64,000 nt of DNA, from NCBI RefSeq assembly GCF_003334355.1, contig NZ_QOWP01000007.1; one strand, given 5' to 3'. The position numbers and the translations under genes are program-made. This document shows, piece after piece, positions 52,327 to 58,081 of the stretch (within the stretch, counting starts at the first letter, position 1; each line of letters opens with the position of its first letter). The notes beneath the pieces are model-generated. The model worked only from the letters and a program-made list of their open reading frames with translations. It was not told the origin of the DNA and searched no databases. The stretch is from Escherichia coli (GTDB lineage: Bacteria; Pseudomonadota; Gammaproteobacteria; Enterobacterales; Enterobacteriaceae).

Positions 52327-52974
52327 ATGTCCGATAACGCTCAACTTACCGGTCTGTGCGACCGTTTTCGTGGTTTTTATCCTGTTGTGATCGATGTTGA
52401 AACAGCCGGATTTAACGCCAAAACCGATGCGCTGCTTGAGATTGCCGCCATCACCCTGAAAATGGATGAACAAGGCTGGCTGATGCCGGACACCACATTA
52501 CATTTCCACGTCGAACCATTTGTCGGCGCAAATTTGCAACCAGAAGCCCTCGCCTTCAACGGCATTGACCCGAACGATCCCGATCGCGGCGCGGTCAGCG
52601 AATACGAGGCGCTGCACGAAATTTTTAAAGTTGTACGTAAAGGTATTAAAGCGAGCGGCTGTAACCGCGCCATTATGGTGGCGCACAATGCCAATTTTGA
52701 TCACAGCTTTATGATGGCCGCCGCAGAACGCGCCTCACTGAAACGTAACCCGTTCCACCCTTTCGCCACTTTTGACACTGCTGCACTGGCCGGGCTGGCA
52801 CTCGGACAAACCGTATTGTCAAAGGCTTGCCAGACCGCTGGCATGGACTTCGACAGCACCCAGGCGCACTCCGCGCTGTACGACACCGAACGCACTGCTG
52901 TGCTGTTTTGTGAAATCGTCAACCGCTGGAAACGTCTGGGAGGCTGGCCGCTACCTGCCGCCGAAGAGGTGTAA
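52327..52974 (+). CDS. rnt: ribonuclease T (DEDDh 3'-5' exoribonuclease)
   Basis: ORF track 215 aa; DEDD motif region [10 protein letters not shown]. Confidence 0.96.
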
Positions 52975-53066
52975 TCGAGTCGATGCCTGATGACATGCAA
53001 TGATTAAGGCATCTATAGTGAGGCTATTCCACGCATCCTGCATGATATTCACGGGGAATAGCGTTA

Positions 53067-56000
53067 ATGGCAGATAATCCAGACCCTTCATCGCTCCTGC
53101 CGGACGTGTTTTCACCGGCGACCCGCGACTGGTTTCTTCGCGCCTTTAAACAGCCGACCGCTGTCCAGCCGCAAACCTGGCATGTGGCGGCGCGAAGCGA
53201 ACATGCGCTGGTGATTGCACCGACCGGCTCCGGGAAAACGCTGGCAGCATTTCTCTACGCCCTCGATCGGCTCTTCCGCGAAGGCGGCGAAGATACCCGC
53301 GAGGCGCATAAGCGTAAAACCTCACGCATCCTCTATATTTCACCGATAAAAGCCCTGGGCACCGACGTTCAGCGCAACTTGCAGATCCCGTTGAAGGGTA
53401 TTGCCGATGAACGGCGGCGGCGCGGCGAAACGGAAGTCAATCTTCGCGTAGGGATCCGTACTGGCGATACGCCTGCACAGGAACGCAGCAAACTCACCCG
53501 TAATCCGCCGGATATTCTGATCACCACACCCGAATCACTCTATCTGATGCTGACCTCCCGCGCGCGCGAAACGCTACGCGGCGTCGAAACGGTAATTATT
53601 GATGAAGTCCACGCGGTAGCGGGCAGTAAACGTGGTGCGCATCTGGCGTTAAGTCTGGAGCGGCTCGATGCGCTGCTCCACACCTCAGCACAGCGAATTG
53701 GCCTTTCTGCCACTGTGCGCTCAGCCAGCGATGTGGCAGCATTTCTTGGTGGCGATCGCCCGGTTACGGTAGTCAACCCGCCCGCAATGCGCCATCCGCA
53801 GATACGAATTGTCGTACCGGTCGCCAATATGGATGATGTCTCATCGGTCGCCAGCGGCACCGGCGAAGACAGCCATGCCGGCCGGGAAGGCTCCATCTGG
53901 CCATATATTGAAACGGGTATCCTTGATGAAGTGTTGCGCCATCGCTCGACCATTGTCTTTACTAATTCACGCGGGCTGGCGGAAAAACTGACGGCACGAT
54001 TAAATGAGCTTTACGCCGCACGCTTACAGCGTTCCCCGTCTATCGCCGTTGATGCGGCCCATTTCGAGTCGACCTCCGGCGCAACCTCTAACCGTGTACA
54101 AAGTAGCGACGTTTTTATTGCCCGCTCACACCACGGCTCCGTCTCTAAAGAACAACGAGCAATCACCGAACAGGCGCTGAAATCGGGTGAATTACGCTGC
54201 GTGGTCGCAACCTCCAGTCTTGAACTGGGGATTGATATGGGCGCGGTGGATCTGGTGATTCAGGTGGCAACGCCGCTTTCTGTTGCCAGTGGGTTACAAC
54301 GCATTGGTCGCGCCGGACATCAGGTTGGCGGTGTATCTAAAGGGCTGTTTTTCCCCCGTACCCGGCGTGATTTAGTCGATTCCGCAGTCATTGTAGAGTG
54401 TATGTTCGCAGGCAGGCTGGAAAACCTGACACCACCGCATAATCCTCTCGACGTCCTTGCGCAGCAAACCGTTGCCGCCGCGGCGATGGATGCATTACAG
54501 GTAGACGAATGGTACTCCCGCGTACGCCGTGCCGCACCGTGGAAAGATCTGCCAAGACGTGTTTTTGACGCCACGCTGGATATGCTTTCCGGGCGCTATC
54601 CCTCTGGCGATTTTTCTGCTTTTCGCCCCAAACTGGTCTGGAACAGGGAGACCGGGATATTGACCGCCCGACCTGGCGCTCAATTGTTGGCGGTTACCAG
54701 CGGCGGCACCATTCCGGATCGTGGCATGTATAGCGTGTTATTACCCGAAGGTGAAGAAAAGGCCGGTTCGCGGCGGGTGGGTGAACTGGATGAGGAGATG
54801 GTATATGAGTCGCGGGTGAACGACATTATCACTCTCGGCGCTACCTCATGGCGGATCCAGCAAATCACCCGCGATCAGGTGATTGTGACTCCTGCTCCGG
54901 GTCGTTCTGCCCGGCTCCCCTTCTGGCGTGGTGAAGGTAACGGACGTCCGGCTGAATTAGGCGAGATGATCGGCGATTTTCTTCATTTGCTGGCGGATGG
55001 CGCGTTCTTTTCCGGGACTATTCCCCCGTGGCTGGCAGAAGAAAATACGATCGCCAATATTCAGGGGTTGATTGAGGAGCAGCGCAACGCAACGGGCATC
55101 GTTCCGGGGAGTCGCCATCTGGTCCTCGAACAGTGCCGTGATGAAATTGGTGACTGGCGTATTATTTTGCACTCTCCCTATGGAAGACGGGTGCATGAAC
55201 CCTGGGCGCTGGCGATTGCCGGGCGAATACATGCGCTATGGGGCGCTGACGCGTCGGTGGTCGCCAGTGATGACGGCATTGTTGCACGTATTCCTGACAC
55301 CGATGGTAAATTGCCCGATGCCGCGATTTTTTTGTTTGAACCAGAAAAGTTGCTGCAAATTGTCCGCGAGGCGGTAGGCAGCTCGGCACTTTTCGCCGCC
55401 CGTTTTCGCGAATGCACCGCGCGGGCATTATTAATGCCGGGGCGCACTCCGGGCCATCGCACCCCGCTTTGGCAACAACGGCTGCGCGCCAGTCAGTTGC
55501 TGGAAATCGCTCAGGGATATCCGGATTTTCCGGTCATTCTCGAAACCCTACGCGAATGTCTGCAAGATGTTTATGATCTTCCCGCACTGGAACGTTTGAT
55601 GCGTCGCCTGAACGGTGGCGAAATTCAAATATCCGATGTAACGACCACTACGCCCTCGCCTTTCGCCACAAGTTTATTGTTCGGCTATGTCGCGGAATTT
55701 ATGTACCAGAGCGACGCCCCGCTGGCAGAGCGCCGGGCATCCGTACTGTCGCTGGACAGCGAGTTACTGCGCAATCTACTCGGACAGGTCGATCCGGGGG
55801 AATTACTCGACCCGCAGGTCATTCGCCAGGTGGAAGAAGAGTTGCAACGACTGGCTCCTGGCAGAAGAGCGAAAGGTGAAGAAGGATTGTTCGACCTGCT
55901 GCGCGAACTGGGGCCAATGACCGTTGAAGACCTGGCGCAACGGCATACAGGCAGCAGTGAAGAGGTTGCGTCGTATCTGGAAAATCTTCTTGCAGTAAAA

Positions 56001-57683
56001 CGAATCTTCCCAGCGATGATTAGCGGACAGGAGCGTCTTGCCTGTATGGATGATGCCGCCAGGCTGCGTGATGCCCTCGGCGTACGACTACCAGAGTCAT
56101 TGCCAGAGATTTATTTACATAGAGTCAGTTACCCGCTTCGCGACCTCTTTCTGCGCTATCTCCGGGCTCATGCTCTGGTCACGGCTGAACAACTGGCTCA
56201 TGAGTTTAGTCTCGGTATTGCCATTGTCGAAGAGCAGCTTCAGCAACTGCGTGAACAGGGTCTGGTGATGAATCTGCAACAAGACATCTGGGTGAGCGAT
56301 GAAGTATTTCGTCGTCTGCGTTTGCGCTCGCTGCAAGCCGCCAGAGAAGCGACGCGTCCCGTTGCAGCCACGACCTATGCGCGATTGCTGCTGGAACGTC
56401 AGGGCGTATTACCCGCCACCGATGGTAGCCCGGCGCTCTTTGCCTCAACATCGCCAGGCGTTTATGAGGGCGTAGATGGCGTGATGCGGGTGATCGAACA
56501 GCTTGCCGGAGTCGGTTTACCCGCCTCACTCTGGGAAAGCCAGATCCTGCCTGCCCGCGTACGCGACTATTCGTCAGAAATGCTCGATGAATTACTGGCA
56601 ACCGGTGCGGTTATCTGGTCGGGGCAAAAAAAACTGGGTGAAGATGACGGCCTGGTGGCACTGCATCTACAGGAATATGCTGCAGAATCGTTCACTCCCG
56701 CCGAAGCGGATCAGGCGAATCGTTCGGCGCTGCAACAAGCGATAGTCGCTGTTCTGGCTGACGGAGGAGCCTGGTTTGCACAACAAATCAGCCAACGGAT
56801 ACGCGACAAAATCGGCGAATCGGTTGATCTCTCTGCCCTGCAAGAGGCGTTATGGGCGCTGGTCTGGCAAGGCGTCATCACCAGCGACATTTGGGCACCG
56901 TTACGCGCCCTCACCCGCAGCAGTTCCAACGCACGCACCTCAACTCGCCGCAGTCACCGGGCTCGTCGTGGACGTCCTGTCTATGCGCAACCCGTCTCGC
57001 CGCGGGTATCTTACAACACACCAAATCTGGCTGGACGCTGGTCGTTATTGCAGGTGGAGCCACTAAACGATACCGAAAGGATGCTGGCGCTGGCGGAAAA
57101 TATGCTCGACCGCTACGGCATCATCAGTCGTCAGACGGTGATAGCCGAAAATATCCCTGGCGGGTTTCCATCGATGCAAACGCTTTGTCGAAGTATGGAA
57201 GACTCCGGGCGAATTATGCGAGGTCGTTTTGTAGAAGGTCTGGGTGGCGCGCAATTCGCTGAACGTCTGACTATTGACCGATTGCGCGATCTGGCGACAC
57301 AAGCTACGCAAACGCGCCACTATACACCAGTGGCGCTCTCTGCCAACGATCCGGCTAATGTGTGGGGAAATCTTCTGCCCTGGCCTGCACATCCGGCAAC
57401 GCTGGTTCCAACGCGTCGGGCGGGTGCGCTGGTGGTCGTTTCTGGCGGCAAATTGTTACTCTATCTGGCGCAAGGTGGCAAAAAAATGCTGGTCTGGCAG
57501 GAAAAAGAGGAATTACTCGCCCCAGAGGTTTTCCACGCGCTGACTACCGCACTGCGTCGCGAACCACGGCTGCGCTTTACGCTAACAGAAGTGAATGATC
57601 TACCGGTCCGGCAAACGCCGATGTTTACGCTGCTGCGTGAGGCGGGATTTTCAAGTTCGCCACAAGGGCTGGATTGGGGATAG
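53067..57683 (+). CDS. lhr: large ATP-dependent helicase Lhr (superfamily 2)
   Basis: ORF track 1538 aa; Walker A APTGSGKT, DEVH box and motif VI QRIGRAGH in the N-terminal half, followed by a long C-terminal extension. Confidence 0.96.
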   Translation: MADNPDPSSLLPDVFSPATRDWFLRAFKQPTAVQPQTWHVAARSEHALVIAPTGSGKTLAAFLYALDRLFREGGEDTREAHKRKTSRILYISPIKALGTDVQRNLQIPLKGIADERRRRGETEVNLRVGIRTGDTPAQERSKLTRNPPDILITTPESLYLMLTSRARETLRGVETVIIDEVHAVAGSKRGAHLALSLERLDALLHTSAQRIGLSATVRSASDVAAFLGGDRPVTVVNPPAMRHPQIRIVVPVANMDDVSSVASGTGEDSHAGREGSIWPYIETGILDEVLRHRSTIVFTNSRGLAEKLTARLNELYAARLQRSPSIAVDAAHFESTSGATSNRVQSSDVFIARSHHGSVSKEQRAITEQALKSGELRCVVATSSLELGIDMGAVDLVIQVATPLSVASGLQRIGRAGHQVGGVSKGLFFPRTRRDLVDSAVIVECMFAGRLENLTPPHNPLDVLAQQTVAAAAMDALQVDEWYSRVRRAAPWKDLPRRVFDATLDMLSGRYPSGDFSAFRPKLVWNRETGILTARPGAQLLAVTSGGTIPDRGMYSVLLPEGEEKAGSRRVGELDEEMVYESRVNDIITLGATSWRIQQITRDQVIVTPAPGRSARLPFWRGEGNGRPAELGEMIGDFLHLLADGAFFSGTIPPWLAEENTIANIQGLIEEQRNATGIVPGSRHLVLEQCRDEIGDWRIILHSPYGRRVHEPWALAIAGRIHALWGADASVVASDDGIVARIPDTDGKLPDAAIFLFEPEKLLQIVREAVGSSALFAARFRECTARALLMPGRTPGHRTPLWQQRLRASQLLEIAQGYPDFPVILETLRECLQDVYDLPALERLMRRLNGGEIQISDVTTTTPSPFATSLLFGYVAEFMYQSDAPLAERRASVLSLDSELLRNLLGQVDPGELLDPQVIRQVEEELQRLAPGRRAKGEEGLFDLLRELGPMTVEDLAQRHTGSSEEVASYLENLLAVKRIFPAMISGQERLACMDDAARLRDALGVRLPESLPEIYLHRVSYPLRDLFLRYLRAHALVTAEQLAHEFSLGIAIVEEQLQQLREQGLVMNLQQDIWVSDEVFRRLRLRSLQAAREATRPVAATTYARLLLERQGVLPATDGSPALFASTSPGVYEGVDGVMRVIEQLAGVGLPASLWESQILPARVRDYSSEMLDELLATGAVIWSGQKKLGEDDGLVALHLQEYAAESFTPAEADQANRSALQQAIVAVLADGGAWFAQQISQRIRDKIGESVDLSALQEALWALVWQGVITSDIWAPLRALTRSSSNARTSTRRSHRARRGRPVYAQPVSPRVSYNTPNLAGRWSLLQVEPLNDTERMLALAENMLDRYGIISRQTVIAENIPGGFPSMQTLCRSMEDSGRIMRGRFVEGLGGAQFAERLTIDRLRDLATQATQTRHYTPVALSANDPANVWGNLLPWPAHPATLVPTRRAGALVVVSGGKLLLYLAQGGKKMLVWQEKEELLAPEVFHALTTALRREPRLRFTLTEVNDLPVRQTPMFTLLREAGFSSSPQGLDWG

Positions 57684-57691
57684 AGAAAGGA

Positions 57692-57720
57692 CTGACGGAT
57701 GCCCGTTCGCATCCGTCAGT
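57692..57720. terminator. putative stem-loop between convergent lhr and grxD
   Basis: Hairpin actgacggatgc-ccgttc-gcatccgtcagt. Confidence 0.45.
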
Positions 57721-57733
57721 ATTGCAGGACGGA

Positions 57734-58081
57734 TTATTCCGCGTCCGGCTCTTCAGACTTGTATTTAGCGGCAGTTTCTTTGATCAGCTGCTGCAGTTCG
57801 CCACGCTGATACATTTCGATCACGATATCACAACCGCCGACCAGCTCGCCGTCAACCCACAGTTGCGGGAAGGTCGGCCAGTTAGCATATTTCGGCAGTT
57901 CCGCACGAATGTCCGGATTCTGCAGAATATCAACATAGGCAAAACGTTCGCCACATGCGGCAAGCGCCTGGACTGCCTGGGCAGAGAAACCGCAGCTCGG
58001 CAGTTTCGGTGAACCTTTCATGTACAGCAGAATCGGGTTTTCAGCAATCTGGCGTTGGATTTTTTCGATAGTGGTGCTCAT
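57734..58081 (-). CDS. grxD: monothiol glutaredoxin 4
   Basis: ORF track 115 aa; CGFS active site (KLPSCGFSAQ). Confidence 0.96.
   Translation of the reverse strand: MSTTIEKIQRQIAENPILLYMKGSPKLPSCGFSAQAVQALAACGERFAYVDILQNPDIRAELPKYANWPTFPQLWVDGELVGGCDIVIEMYQRGELQQLIKETAAKYKSEEPDAE

Follow-up and report, generated by a model that had tools for sequence, protein, structure and literature searches.

The C-terminal half of Escherichia coli Lhr is a winged-helix and beta-barrel region whose reported uracil-excision aspartate is confined to close relatives

Introduction

The closest known system to the locus considered here is Lhr of M. smegmatis, for which structures of the helicase core (Lhr-Core, PDB 5V9X) and of the tetrameric C-terminal domain (Lhr-CTD, PDB 7LHL) have been solved, and whose CTD is about 35% identical to that of E. 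coli. The mycobacterial protein has no reported glycosylase activity, its AlkZ-like DNA site is described as buried in the tetramer, and CTD mutations that break the tetramer abolish repair in vivo (PMC9841417). The E. coli protein, EcoLhr, is reported to be an oligomeric, ssDNA-dependent ATPase with 3'-5' translocase/helicase activity, for which a Core boundary at residue 877 and a beta-barrel module in the CTD have been described (PMC8053096). A tryptophan, W620 in E. coli and W597 in M. smegmatis, stacks on the tracking strand and serves to couple translocation to ATP hydrolysis (PMC8053096, PMC9841417). The substitution D1536A abolishes uracil-glycosylase (UDG) activity, in the CTD fragment as well as in full-length Lhr, and leaves DNA binding and unwinding unaffected (PMC10953399), which argues against a contaminant as the source of the activity; the activity itself is documented by in vitro data from one laboratory.

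Three further groups of proteins invite comparison. Lhr-Core, Hel308 and Ski2-like SF2 helicases (archaeal and bacterial Lhr-Core, Hel308, Brr2) share with Lhr an N-terminal RecA1-RecA2-WH motor and 3'-5' polarity, with PDB matches to Hel308 and Brr2 at E 1e-14 to 1e-19, but lack its 660-residue CTD; Lhr-Core genes, moreover, usually adjoin an MPE phosphoesterase gene, while E. coli lhr adjoins rnt (PMC7437997). AlkZ and YcaQ (AlkX), members of the HTH_42 superfamily (PDB 5UUJ, 9ZD6), are 13-15% identical to Lhr-CTD, which unlike them is helicase-fused and oligomeric, and has uracil rather than crosslinks as its reported substrate. Canonical UDGs (Ung, family 1-6 UDG fold) share with Lhr the reported uracil excision and its dependence on an Asp (PMC10953399), but their fold is unrelated to that of Lhr-CTD, in which the Asp is the third residue from the end and belongs to the beta-barrel.

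The gene, its helicase core, the structure of the CTD and a glycosylase activity are thus already published. ATPase/translocase activity, oligomerisation, UDG activity and sensitivity to H2O2 and AZT are taken here from the literature; gene identity, domain architecture, fold and the presence of D1536 are established in the present analysis.

Results

We analysed a window of 64,000 nt of E. coli DNA (contig NZ_QOWP01000007.1) that contains a long open reading frame downstream of rnt (Table 1). This frame is E. coli lhr, a known and well-studied gene: its product matches the NCBIfam equivalog NF007284 at 3408.6 bits (cut-off 1496) over residues 1-1538 of the 1538-position model, and RefSeq uses the names lhr, rnt and grxD in E. 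coli chromosomes that are 99.9% identical. A first-pass annotation of the window had identified the gene, its helicase motifs and its genomic context, all of which stand, and had described a C-terminal half to which no motif could be assigned, which does not (see below).

Table 1. Features of the lhr locus, with positions in the window and residues of the Lhr protein.
Feature	Position	Strand	Residues	Description
rnt	52327..52974	+		RNase T, 215 aa; upstream same-strand ORF, RefSeq name
rnt-lhr spacer	52975..53066	+		92 nt; no intrinsic-terminator-like site; fold z -0.77
Spacer hairpin	about 52982-53013	+		7 bp
Putative promoter	52990-53019	+		sigma-70-like hexamer pair ATGACA-18-TATAGT, inside spacer
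lhr	53067..57683	+	1-1538	ORF, ATG start, 1538 codons (1538 aa) and TAG stop
Lhr-Core	53067..55697	+	1 to ~877	SF2 motor; Pfam, PDB 5V9X match
DEAD/RecA1			31-218	Pfam E 2e-30
Helicase_C/RecA2			349-417	Pfam E 7e-13
WH_Lhr			446-616	Pfam E 2e-47
DEAD_assoc (domain 4)			679-867	Pfam E 8e-61
Lhr-CTD	55695..57680	+	877-1538	winged-helix array, then C-terminal beta-barrel
WH2_Lhr	55800..56114	+	912-1016	Pfam PF23236, E 3.2e-19
WH3_Lhr	56454..56684	+	1130-1206	Pfam PF23235, E 1.6e-26
Arg/Ser-rich linker	56922..57014	+	1286-1316	predicted disordered; AF2 pLDDT <50, CTD residues 410-440
WH4_Lhr	57066..57314	+	1334-1416	Pfam PF23234, E 1e-27
Beta-barrel region	57324..57680	+	~1420-1538	AF2 strands, CTD residues 545-661; includes invariant D1428-P-A-N
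Asp-1536	57672..57674	+	1536	GAT codon; protein ends ...P-Q-G-L-D1536-W-G-stop
3' hairpin	57691-57720			12-bp stem, between convergent lhr and grxD stop codons
grxD	57734..58081	-		monothiol glutaredoxin 4, 115 aa; convergent downstream ORF

The spacing of 92 nt between rnt and lhr given by the first-pass annotation is exact, and the stem-loop that it placed at the convergent ends of lhr and grxD is a strong hairpin, with a dG of -22.0 kcal/mol (z -4.0) as plus-strand RNA and -22.7 kcal/mol (z -4.7) as minus-strand RNA; none of 200 shuffles folded as well. Because its T-rich tail lies only on the minus (grxD) side, we rejected its interpretation as a canonical bidirectional intrinsic terminator. 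We also rejected a structured attenuator in the rnt-lhr spacer, since the spacer fold does not beat its shuffles, and a search of the spacer for an intrinsic-terminator-like site found none. We infer that rnt and lhr are co-transcribed, and the promoter-like site in the spacer suggests that lhr transcription may be independent of rnt. Mutants of rnt and of lhr are each reported to be sensitive to H2O2. An enteric relative at 73% identity, L010, keeps the order rnt-lhr-grxD, and no paper in the literature searched contains the term "rnt-lhr".

The N-terminal part of the protein is an SF2 motor, as had been proposed from its motifs: APTGSGKT (residues 51-58), DEVH (179-182) and QRIGRAGH (411-418) are all present; in full-length Lhr, motifs I, II and VI precede WH_Lhr and DEAD_assoc. 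It matches M. smegmatis Lhr-Core (5V9X) at E 1.5e-292, residue 620 is a Trp, and the NCBIfam models PRK13767 and DEXH_lig_assoc match too, but under their cut-offs.

Turning to the C-terminal half, the claim that its last ~700 aa contain no assignable motif falls because Pfam places three dedicated winged-helix families there (WH2_Lhr, WH3_Lhr and WH4_Lhr) and the orthologous M. smegmatis CTD has a solved structure (7LHL); domain and structure checks thus identified a known domain. The E. coli CTD contains five winged-helix modules and a beta-barrel, and its predicted disordered linker has a counterpart in the M. smegmatis cryo-EM map, in which loop 1251-1276 is disordered (PMC8053096). Modelling gives the CTD a winged-helix array and beta-barrel that are 7LHL-like and of AlkZ/YcaQ type. 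Several columns are invariant across homologues of about 40% identity, namely G-R1324-W, D1274, GGAQF (1393-1397), D1428-P-A-N and Gln-1145, the last being the invariant Q269 in CTD numbering. That this region is without a recognisable domain and possibly has a novel function, as the first-pass annotation read it, is a proposal that draws on the lack of a classical short catalytic motif visible by eye and on an empty single-sequence search (phmmer) of the PDB with the last 59 residues. It took the profile of our CTD alignment A1 to carry the match through to the C-terminus of 7LHL. In view of the Pfam families, the solved structure, a confident AF2 model with clear fold matches and published papers on structure and function, we consider this proposal refuted and scarcely credible. 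With these domains published and the entire protein covered by current Pfam and NCBIfam models, the first-pass finding is an ordinary one of little consequence.

Among the fold matches of the predicted CTD model, the crosslink glycosylases AlkZ and YcaQ/AlkX rank next after 7LHL, and Lhr-CTD shares their C-shaped fold, with three winged helices and a beta-barrel; no UDG family appeared among the Pfam matches or top fold matches of Lhr. At the sequence level the resemblance is slight. The Pfam AlkZ-like family PF06224, precomputed on many, not all, Lhr homologues, matches residues 927-1108 weakly (E 1.1e-3, 19 bits), and a PDB profile search with the CTD alignment found no AlkZ or YcaQ match. 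Aligning A1 to E. coli YcaQ with hhalign gave one 30-column match at a probability of 3%, and blastp of Lhr against YcaQ recovered the same segment (24 residues, E 0.05), on which grounds we rejected, for the CTD, a link to YcaQ at the level of sequence. Since this sole, weak local match (Lhr 1158-1187 with YcaQ 57-88) is usable only as an anchor, the placement of the catalytic motif is conditional on it: allowing for a one-residue insertion in Lhr, YcaQ Q45-I-D47 would lie opposite Lhr Q1145-L-A1147, so that the invariant Gln-1145, within WH3_Lhr, would fall at the Q-I-D position or at most one residue from it, where Lhr reads Q-L-A. The (Q/H)-phi-(Q/D) motif itself was sought in Lhr, and neither QxQ nor QxD occurs after residue 1071, in agreement with its stated absence (PMC10953399, PMC9040887).

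These fold matches raise the question of whether the CTD acts as AlkZ and YcaQ do, unhooking interstrand crosslinks or removing bulky alkyl-purines with uracil merely a surrogate substrate. The proximity of lhr to DNA glycosylase genes in other clades, of Fapy/H2TH nei2-like type in L004 and of Pur_DNA_glyco type in L008 and L009, would fit such a role, and mycobacterial lhr, in an operon with nei2 where E. coli lhr lies 3' of rnt, yields a crosslinker-sensitive mutant. The E. coli mutant, in contrast, is not crosslinker-sensitive (PMC9841417, PMC10953399), and specifically not sensitive to mitomycin C (PMC10953399); the missing catalytic motif, the presence of YcaQ in E. coli already and the lack of any reported crosslink-unhooking activity for any Lhr make this role improbable. 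More generally, lhr often adjoins base-excision genes (nei2, Mpg-like, rnt), which hints at a role in lesion recognition coupled to the helicase.

Uracil excision by the E. coli protein is reported to depend on Asp-1536, and we assessed how widely this residue is shared. The reported catalytic Asp is not conserved across the Lhr-CTD family: it occupies the equivalent position in 3 of the 35 sequences of alignment A1, in 14 of the 120 closest database matches (the 12 displayed all end ...P-x-G-L-D-W-G), and, with clustering at 50%, in 7 of 152 sequences, made up of 150 representatives and 2 re-listed matches. In this last set Arg is the commonest residue, and there are also examples of Ser, Thr, Tyr, Val and Lys. 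The relatives that carry Asp all share 66% identity or more with the E. coli CTD. The equivalent residue is Arg in M. smegmatis, which ends ...P-R-G-L-R-L-R against ...P-Q-G-L-D1536-W-G in E. coli. Most actinobacterial homologues have Arg there too, Stenotrophomonas has Ser and Erwinia has Tyr. This narrow spread suggests that uracil excision may not be the conserved function of the family.

A CTD that is mainly structural would accommodate this distribution: an oligomerisation scaffold and winged-helix array for binding DNA or protein, descended from an AlkZ/YcaQ glycosylase that lost its catalytic centre, with uracil excision as a weak, lineage-specific side activity. Consistent with such a scaffold, D1536 is not kept beyond close enteric relatives, the QxQ/QxD motif is missing, with Leu-Ala after the invariant Gln-1145, and many other CTD positions are invariant, including the interface-equivalent R1324 and D1274, which preserve the M. 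smegmatis pair R1286-D1237; in the mycobacterial protein, repair in vivo is abolished by tetramer-breaking CTD mutations, the cleft is described as buried and no glycosylase activity is on record (PMC9841417). Other M. smegmatis interface residues differ, however, with H1199, Y1203 and R1206 becoming D, W and Q in E. coli, and with H1199 and R1206 replaced by Asp and Gln the E. coli protein may assemble differently, in a way that could keep its cleft open. The specific loss of activity in D1536A, with binding and unwinding intact (PMC10953399), and the H2O2 sensitivity of delta-lhr strains also speak against a mainly structural CTD, which we regard as the less likely reading.

A single shared 4388-bp deletion, corresponding to window positions 53169-57556, removes lhr from 1040 of 5426 complete E. 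coli genomes (about 19%), including Nissle 1917, CFT073, ATCC 25922 and UTI89, so any role of Lhr is dispensable. The limited literature searched yielded no earlier report of lhr deletion in E. coli lineages, and one may exist elsewhere.

Discussion

We favour, with a probability of roughly 0.8, the reading of Lhr as a characterised two-part DNA-repair enzyme, in which an SF2 motor is joined to an oligomerising, uracil-removing CTD of AlkZ/YcaQ fold. In this reading Lhr-Core is a Ski2/Hel308-like motor built from RecA1 and RecA2 together with a winged helix and domain 4; it binds single-stranded DNA, moves 3'-to-5' with ATP, can unwind forked DNA as well as RNA:DNA hybrids, and supplies most of the DNA binding. 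The CTD, with its five winged-helix modules and beta-barrel, makes the protein oligomeric, and its last modules adopt the C shape of AlkZ/YcaQ glycosylases. In E. coli the CTD removes uracil, by a reaction that depends on Asp-1536, from DNA that is single-stranded or forked. Such an enzyme would probably survey single-stranded DNA for lesions where stalled forks or R-loops expose it, an in vivo context that we infer, and may serve as a non-essential back-up pathway.

We also entertain, at somewhat under even odds, the idea that Asp-1536-based uracil excision arose recently in the Escherichia-type enteric clade or is a side activity, in which case another function would have conserved the 660-residue CTD from Actinobacteria to Proteobacteria. 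The uropathogenic and probiotic strains that have lost lhr constitute natural knock-outs for studies of mutation avoidance and of tolerance to oxidative and replication stress. For the family as a whole, the restriction of Asp-1536 cautions against transferring a uracil-glycosylase function to its other members, mycobacterial Lhr included.

Gene identity and helicase core

Every sequence and fold criterion that we tested places the 1538-residue product in the Lhr family. It matches the NCBIfam equivalog NF007284 at 3408.6 bits over residues 1-1538 (cut-off 1496 bits), and its N-terminal half matches the Mycobacterium smegmatis Lhr-Core crystal structure 5V9X (E 1.5e-292), with Hel308, Brr2 and Ski2-type helicases as more distant matches. 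The reading frame and its position after rnt in the first-pass annotation hold, with a same-strand spacer of exactly 92 nt, as do the helicase motifs listed there (APTGSGKT at residues 51-58, DEVH at 179-182 and QRIGRAGH at 411-418). Also present is Trp-620, mutation of which uncouples ATP hydrolysis from translocation in E. coli Lhr (PMC8053096). The rnt, lhr and grxD genes are annotated at 99.9% identity in E. coli strains C, B and BL21-type, and each of the 5426 complete E. coli genomes has a match to the region (Megablast). The feature is thus real and correctly named, but the gene is already known.

Features of the lhr region (nucleotide positions in the window; domain positions in Lhr residues)
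Feature	Position	Strand	Details
rnt	52327-52974	+	215 aa; ORF preceding lhr
sigma-70-like hexamer pair	52990-53019	+	ATGACA-18-TATAGT; 10/12 matches; inside the 92-nt spacer
lhr	53067-57683	+	ATG start, 1538 codons plus TAG
segment deleted in other E. coli genomes	53169-57556		4388 bp
Asp-1536 codon	57672-57674	+	GAT
hairpin	57691-57720		12-bp stem; between lhr and grxD stops
grxD	57734-58081	-	convergent ORF
DEAD (Pfam)	residues 31-218
Helicase_C (Pfam)	residues 349-417
WH_Lhr (Pfam)	residues 446-616		E 2e-47
DEAD_assoc (Pfam)	residues 679-867		E 8e-61
WH2_Lhr (Pfam)	residues 912-1016		E 3e-19
WH3_Lhr (Pfam)	residues 1130-1206		E 2e-26
WH4_Lhr (Pfam)	residues 1334-1416		E 1e-27

Structure and activities of the C-terminal half

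The first-pass annotation had described the C-terminal half as lacking any assignable motif, a description overturned by the three dedicated Pfam families and the M. smegmatis Lhr structure 7LHL that match there. Residues 877-1538 (the C-terminal domain, CTD) alone match the full-length 7LHL chain with E 1.5e-115, and a profile of 35 CTD homologues (alignment A1, drawn from a database search yielding 2166 homologues at E ≤ 1e-5) aligns through the last residue of that chain (E 5.5e-279). An AlphaFold2 model of the CTD built from A1 has a mean pLDDT of 82.9 and a pTM of 0.74; confidence is low over a long stretch only in an Arg/Ser-rich linker (residues 1286-1316), and the corresponding loop is likewise disordered in the M. 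smegmatis cryo-EM map (PMC8053096). Dozens of CTD positions are invariant among homologues that are ~40% identical, including G-R1324-W, D1274, GGAQF 1393-1397 and D1428-P-A-N. The supposedly motif-less half is structurally and, in part, functionally characterised.

Published work describes E. coli Lhr as an ssDNA-dependent ATPase and 3'-to-5' translocase whose helicase activity prefers RNA:DNA hybrids, with a monomeric Core and an oligomeric full-length protein (PMC8053096). The E. coli CTD, like the full-length protein, removes uracil from ssDNA, and more efficiently from forked DNA, leaving 8-oxoG unexcised; the D1536A substitution abolishes excision with DNA binding and unwinding unaffected, and Δlhr cells are sensitive to H2O2, mildly sensitive to AZT and not sensitive to mitomycin (Buckley et al. 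2023, PMC10953399). Resistance of M. smegmatis to mitomycin C and cisplatin requires the CTD, the tetramer interface, and the ATPase and helicase activities (PMC9841417). Taken with these literature activities, the architecture seen in our analysis, a 3'-5' ssDNA motor joined to an oligomerising winged-helix/beta-barrel module of glycosylase fold, best supports a mechanism in which the motor binds DNA and carries the module to base damage on single-stranded or forked DNA; we infer that the setting in vivo is replication or transcription stress.

Relation to AlkZ/YcaQ glycosylases

The Lhr CTD belongs to the AlkZ/YcaQ (HTH_42) glycosylase family by fold only. The defining catalytic motif of that family, (Q/H)-phi-(Q/D) (PMC9040887), is absent, there being no QxQ or QxD in Lhr after residue 1071. 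The only local match to E. coli YcaQ pairs Lhr 1158-1187 with YcaQ 57-88 (hhalign E 0.015, probability 3%; blastp E 0.05). With a one-residue insertion in Lhr, this anchor sets YcaQ Q45-I-D47 opposite Lhr Q1145-L-A1147 (window 56499-56507); extended ungapped, it sets Q45 opposite L1146. Gln-1145 is invariant in A1, and Lhr has Ala in place of the second catalytic residue. From this weak anchor, Gln-1145 would coincide with the YcaQ catalytic position or lie one residue away from it, and Q1145-L-A would be a remnant of an ancestral glycosylase site.

Distribution of Asp-1536 and the role of the CTD

The E. coli protein ends D-W-G-stop, directly after a near-invariant P-x-G-L (residues 1532-1535). 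Asp occupies the position equivalent to 1536 in only 3 of the 35 sequences of A1, namely E. coli and relatives 89% and 68% identical in the alignment. Among the 120 best database hits it is found in 14 (Arg in 76); all 12 Asp cases among those listed end in P-x-G-L-D-W-G, and those with near-complete coverage are ≥66% identical (local BLASTP). Of the 152 sequences compared after clustering at 50% identity (150 representatives together with the database proteins P0022 and P0026), 7 have Asp, all of them E. coli-like; 52 have Arg, and Val, Ser, Thr, Tyr and others also occur. The residue is Arg in Micrococcus luteus and most actinobacterial homologues, Ser in Stenotrophomonas and Tyr in an Erwinia sequence, and M. 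smegmatis Lhr ends T-P-R-G-L-R-L-R, in contrast to the E. coli P-x-G-L-D-W-G. Because Asp is so rare outside the E. coli type while other CTD positions are invariant, the comparison leaves three readings: uracil excision is confined to the Escherichia-type clade, D1536 does not serve as catalytic base in general, or another residue takes its place in other clades.

The main competing explanation is that the CTD is conserved for oligomerisation and substrate handling. It is favoured by the restriction of the uracil-excision Asp to relatives whose identity to the E. coli CTD is ≥66%, and by M. smegmatis Lhr, for which no glycosylase activity is reported and whose tetramer buries the AlkZ-like cleft (PMC9841417). 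However, M. smegmatis interface residues are themselves not kept: H1199, Y1203 and R1206, the triple mutation of which together with R1286 breaks the tetramer, correspond to Asp, Trp and Gln in E. coli (residues 1199-1207, window 56661-56687, LADGGAWFAQQ region), whereas the M. smegmatis R1286-D1237 pair is retained as R1324-D1274. Since the main interface residues H1199 and R1206 are replaced, the E. coli assembly, and with it the oligomer interface, may differ from that of 7LHL. The residual question is the family-wide role of the CTD, given a clade-restricted uracil-excision Asp; it is legitimate, modest and not unique to this window.

Transcriptional context and neighbouring genes

No terminator-like site was found in the 92-nt rnt-lhr spacer, whose predicted fold is unremarkable (z -0.77). 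Co-transcription of rnt and lhr is plausible, and with the hexamer pair in the spacer lhr could have a transcript of its own as well as one shared with rnt; in the case of co-transcription, insertions in rnt may have polar effects on lhr. Downstream, the convergent stem-loop that the first-pass annotation had proposed as shared with grxD is borne out by a hairpin between both stop codons (RNA dG -22.0 kcal/mol, z -4.0, on the plus strand; -22.7, z -4.7, on the minus strand; 0/200 shuffles fold as well). A T-rich tail follows on the minus strand only, the lhr side then reading AUUGCAGG (window 57691-57733), which makes the hairpin a canonical intrinsic terminator on the grxD side; for lhr it can be no more than a stabiliser or a weak stop.

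Full-length lhr often adjoins rnt (Buckley et al. 2020, PMC7437997), and the order rnt-lhr-grxD-mepH-sodB is kept, with a 144-nt spacer, in a 73%-identical enteric relative (L010). In other clades lhr has base-excision genes as neighbours: in Stenotrophomonas-type contigs it lacks rnt and faces a convergent Pur_DNA_glyco (3-methyladenine glycosylase family) gene (L008:8819-9436, L009:8740-9483), and an actinobacterial contig has a Fapy_DNA_glyco/H2TH (nei2-type) gene directly after lhr (L004:9333-10127). In the enteric relative (L010:3457-8130), an in-frame TAG replaces a Gln codon at about Lhr residue 834, so that an 833-aa Core-like ORF is separated from a 709-aa CTD ORF. An identical 709-aa ORF is called in a second Logan assembly (L011:1691-3820), where the upstream part is broken differently. 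The split gene is likely a pseudogene or a strain-specific nonsense allele.

Loss of lhr in the E. coli population

Most of lhr is carried by 4383 of the 5426 complete E. coli genomes, including K-12, B, C, W (KO11FL), H10407, O157:H7 and O111:H8 strains. In another 1040, rnt and grxD flank one and the same 229-bp remnant, made up of 102 nt from the start of the gene and 127 nt from its end (L001:4001-4229 in Nissle 1917; L006:11249-11477 in UTI89). The breakpoints fall in an imperfect repeat, CGC-N-AACC (left C-CGC-A-AACC, right T-CGC-G-AACC), and a frameshift reduces the remnant, labelled in RefSeq as two pseudogene fragments, to a 47-codon ORF. Carriers include Nissle 1917, CFT073, ATCC 25922, clone D i2 and i14, UTI89, and O18:H1, O2:H1 and O6:K2:H1 strains; the named carriers belong to phylogroup B2 (ST73, ST95). 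The single junction common to carriers implies one ancestral event. The literature searched makes no mention of this deletion, which is weak evidence of novelty.

Separately, one of 5429 lhr matches in the E. coli genome collection belongs to a plasmid record, not to a chromosome, and several E. coli and Shigella database entries (P0003, P0011, P0016, P0023) represent Lhr fragments that are truncated or frameshifted and carry out-of-frame tails, such as a 464-aa 'DEAD/H associated family protein' cluster of 112 members, suggesting further independent lhr disruptions or assembly errors.

Loss of the gene throughout a large, successful lineage means that lhr is dispensable there, which fits the mild phenotypes of knock-outs, and the deletion carriers are natural null backgrounds.
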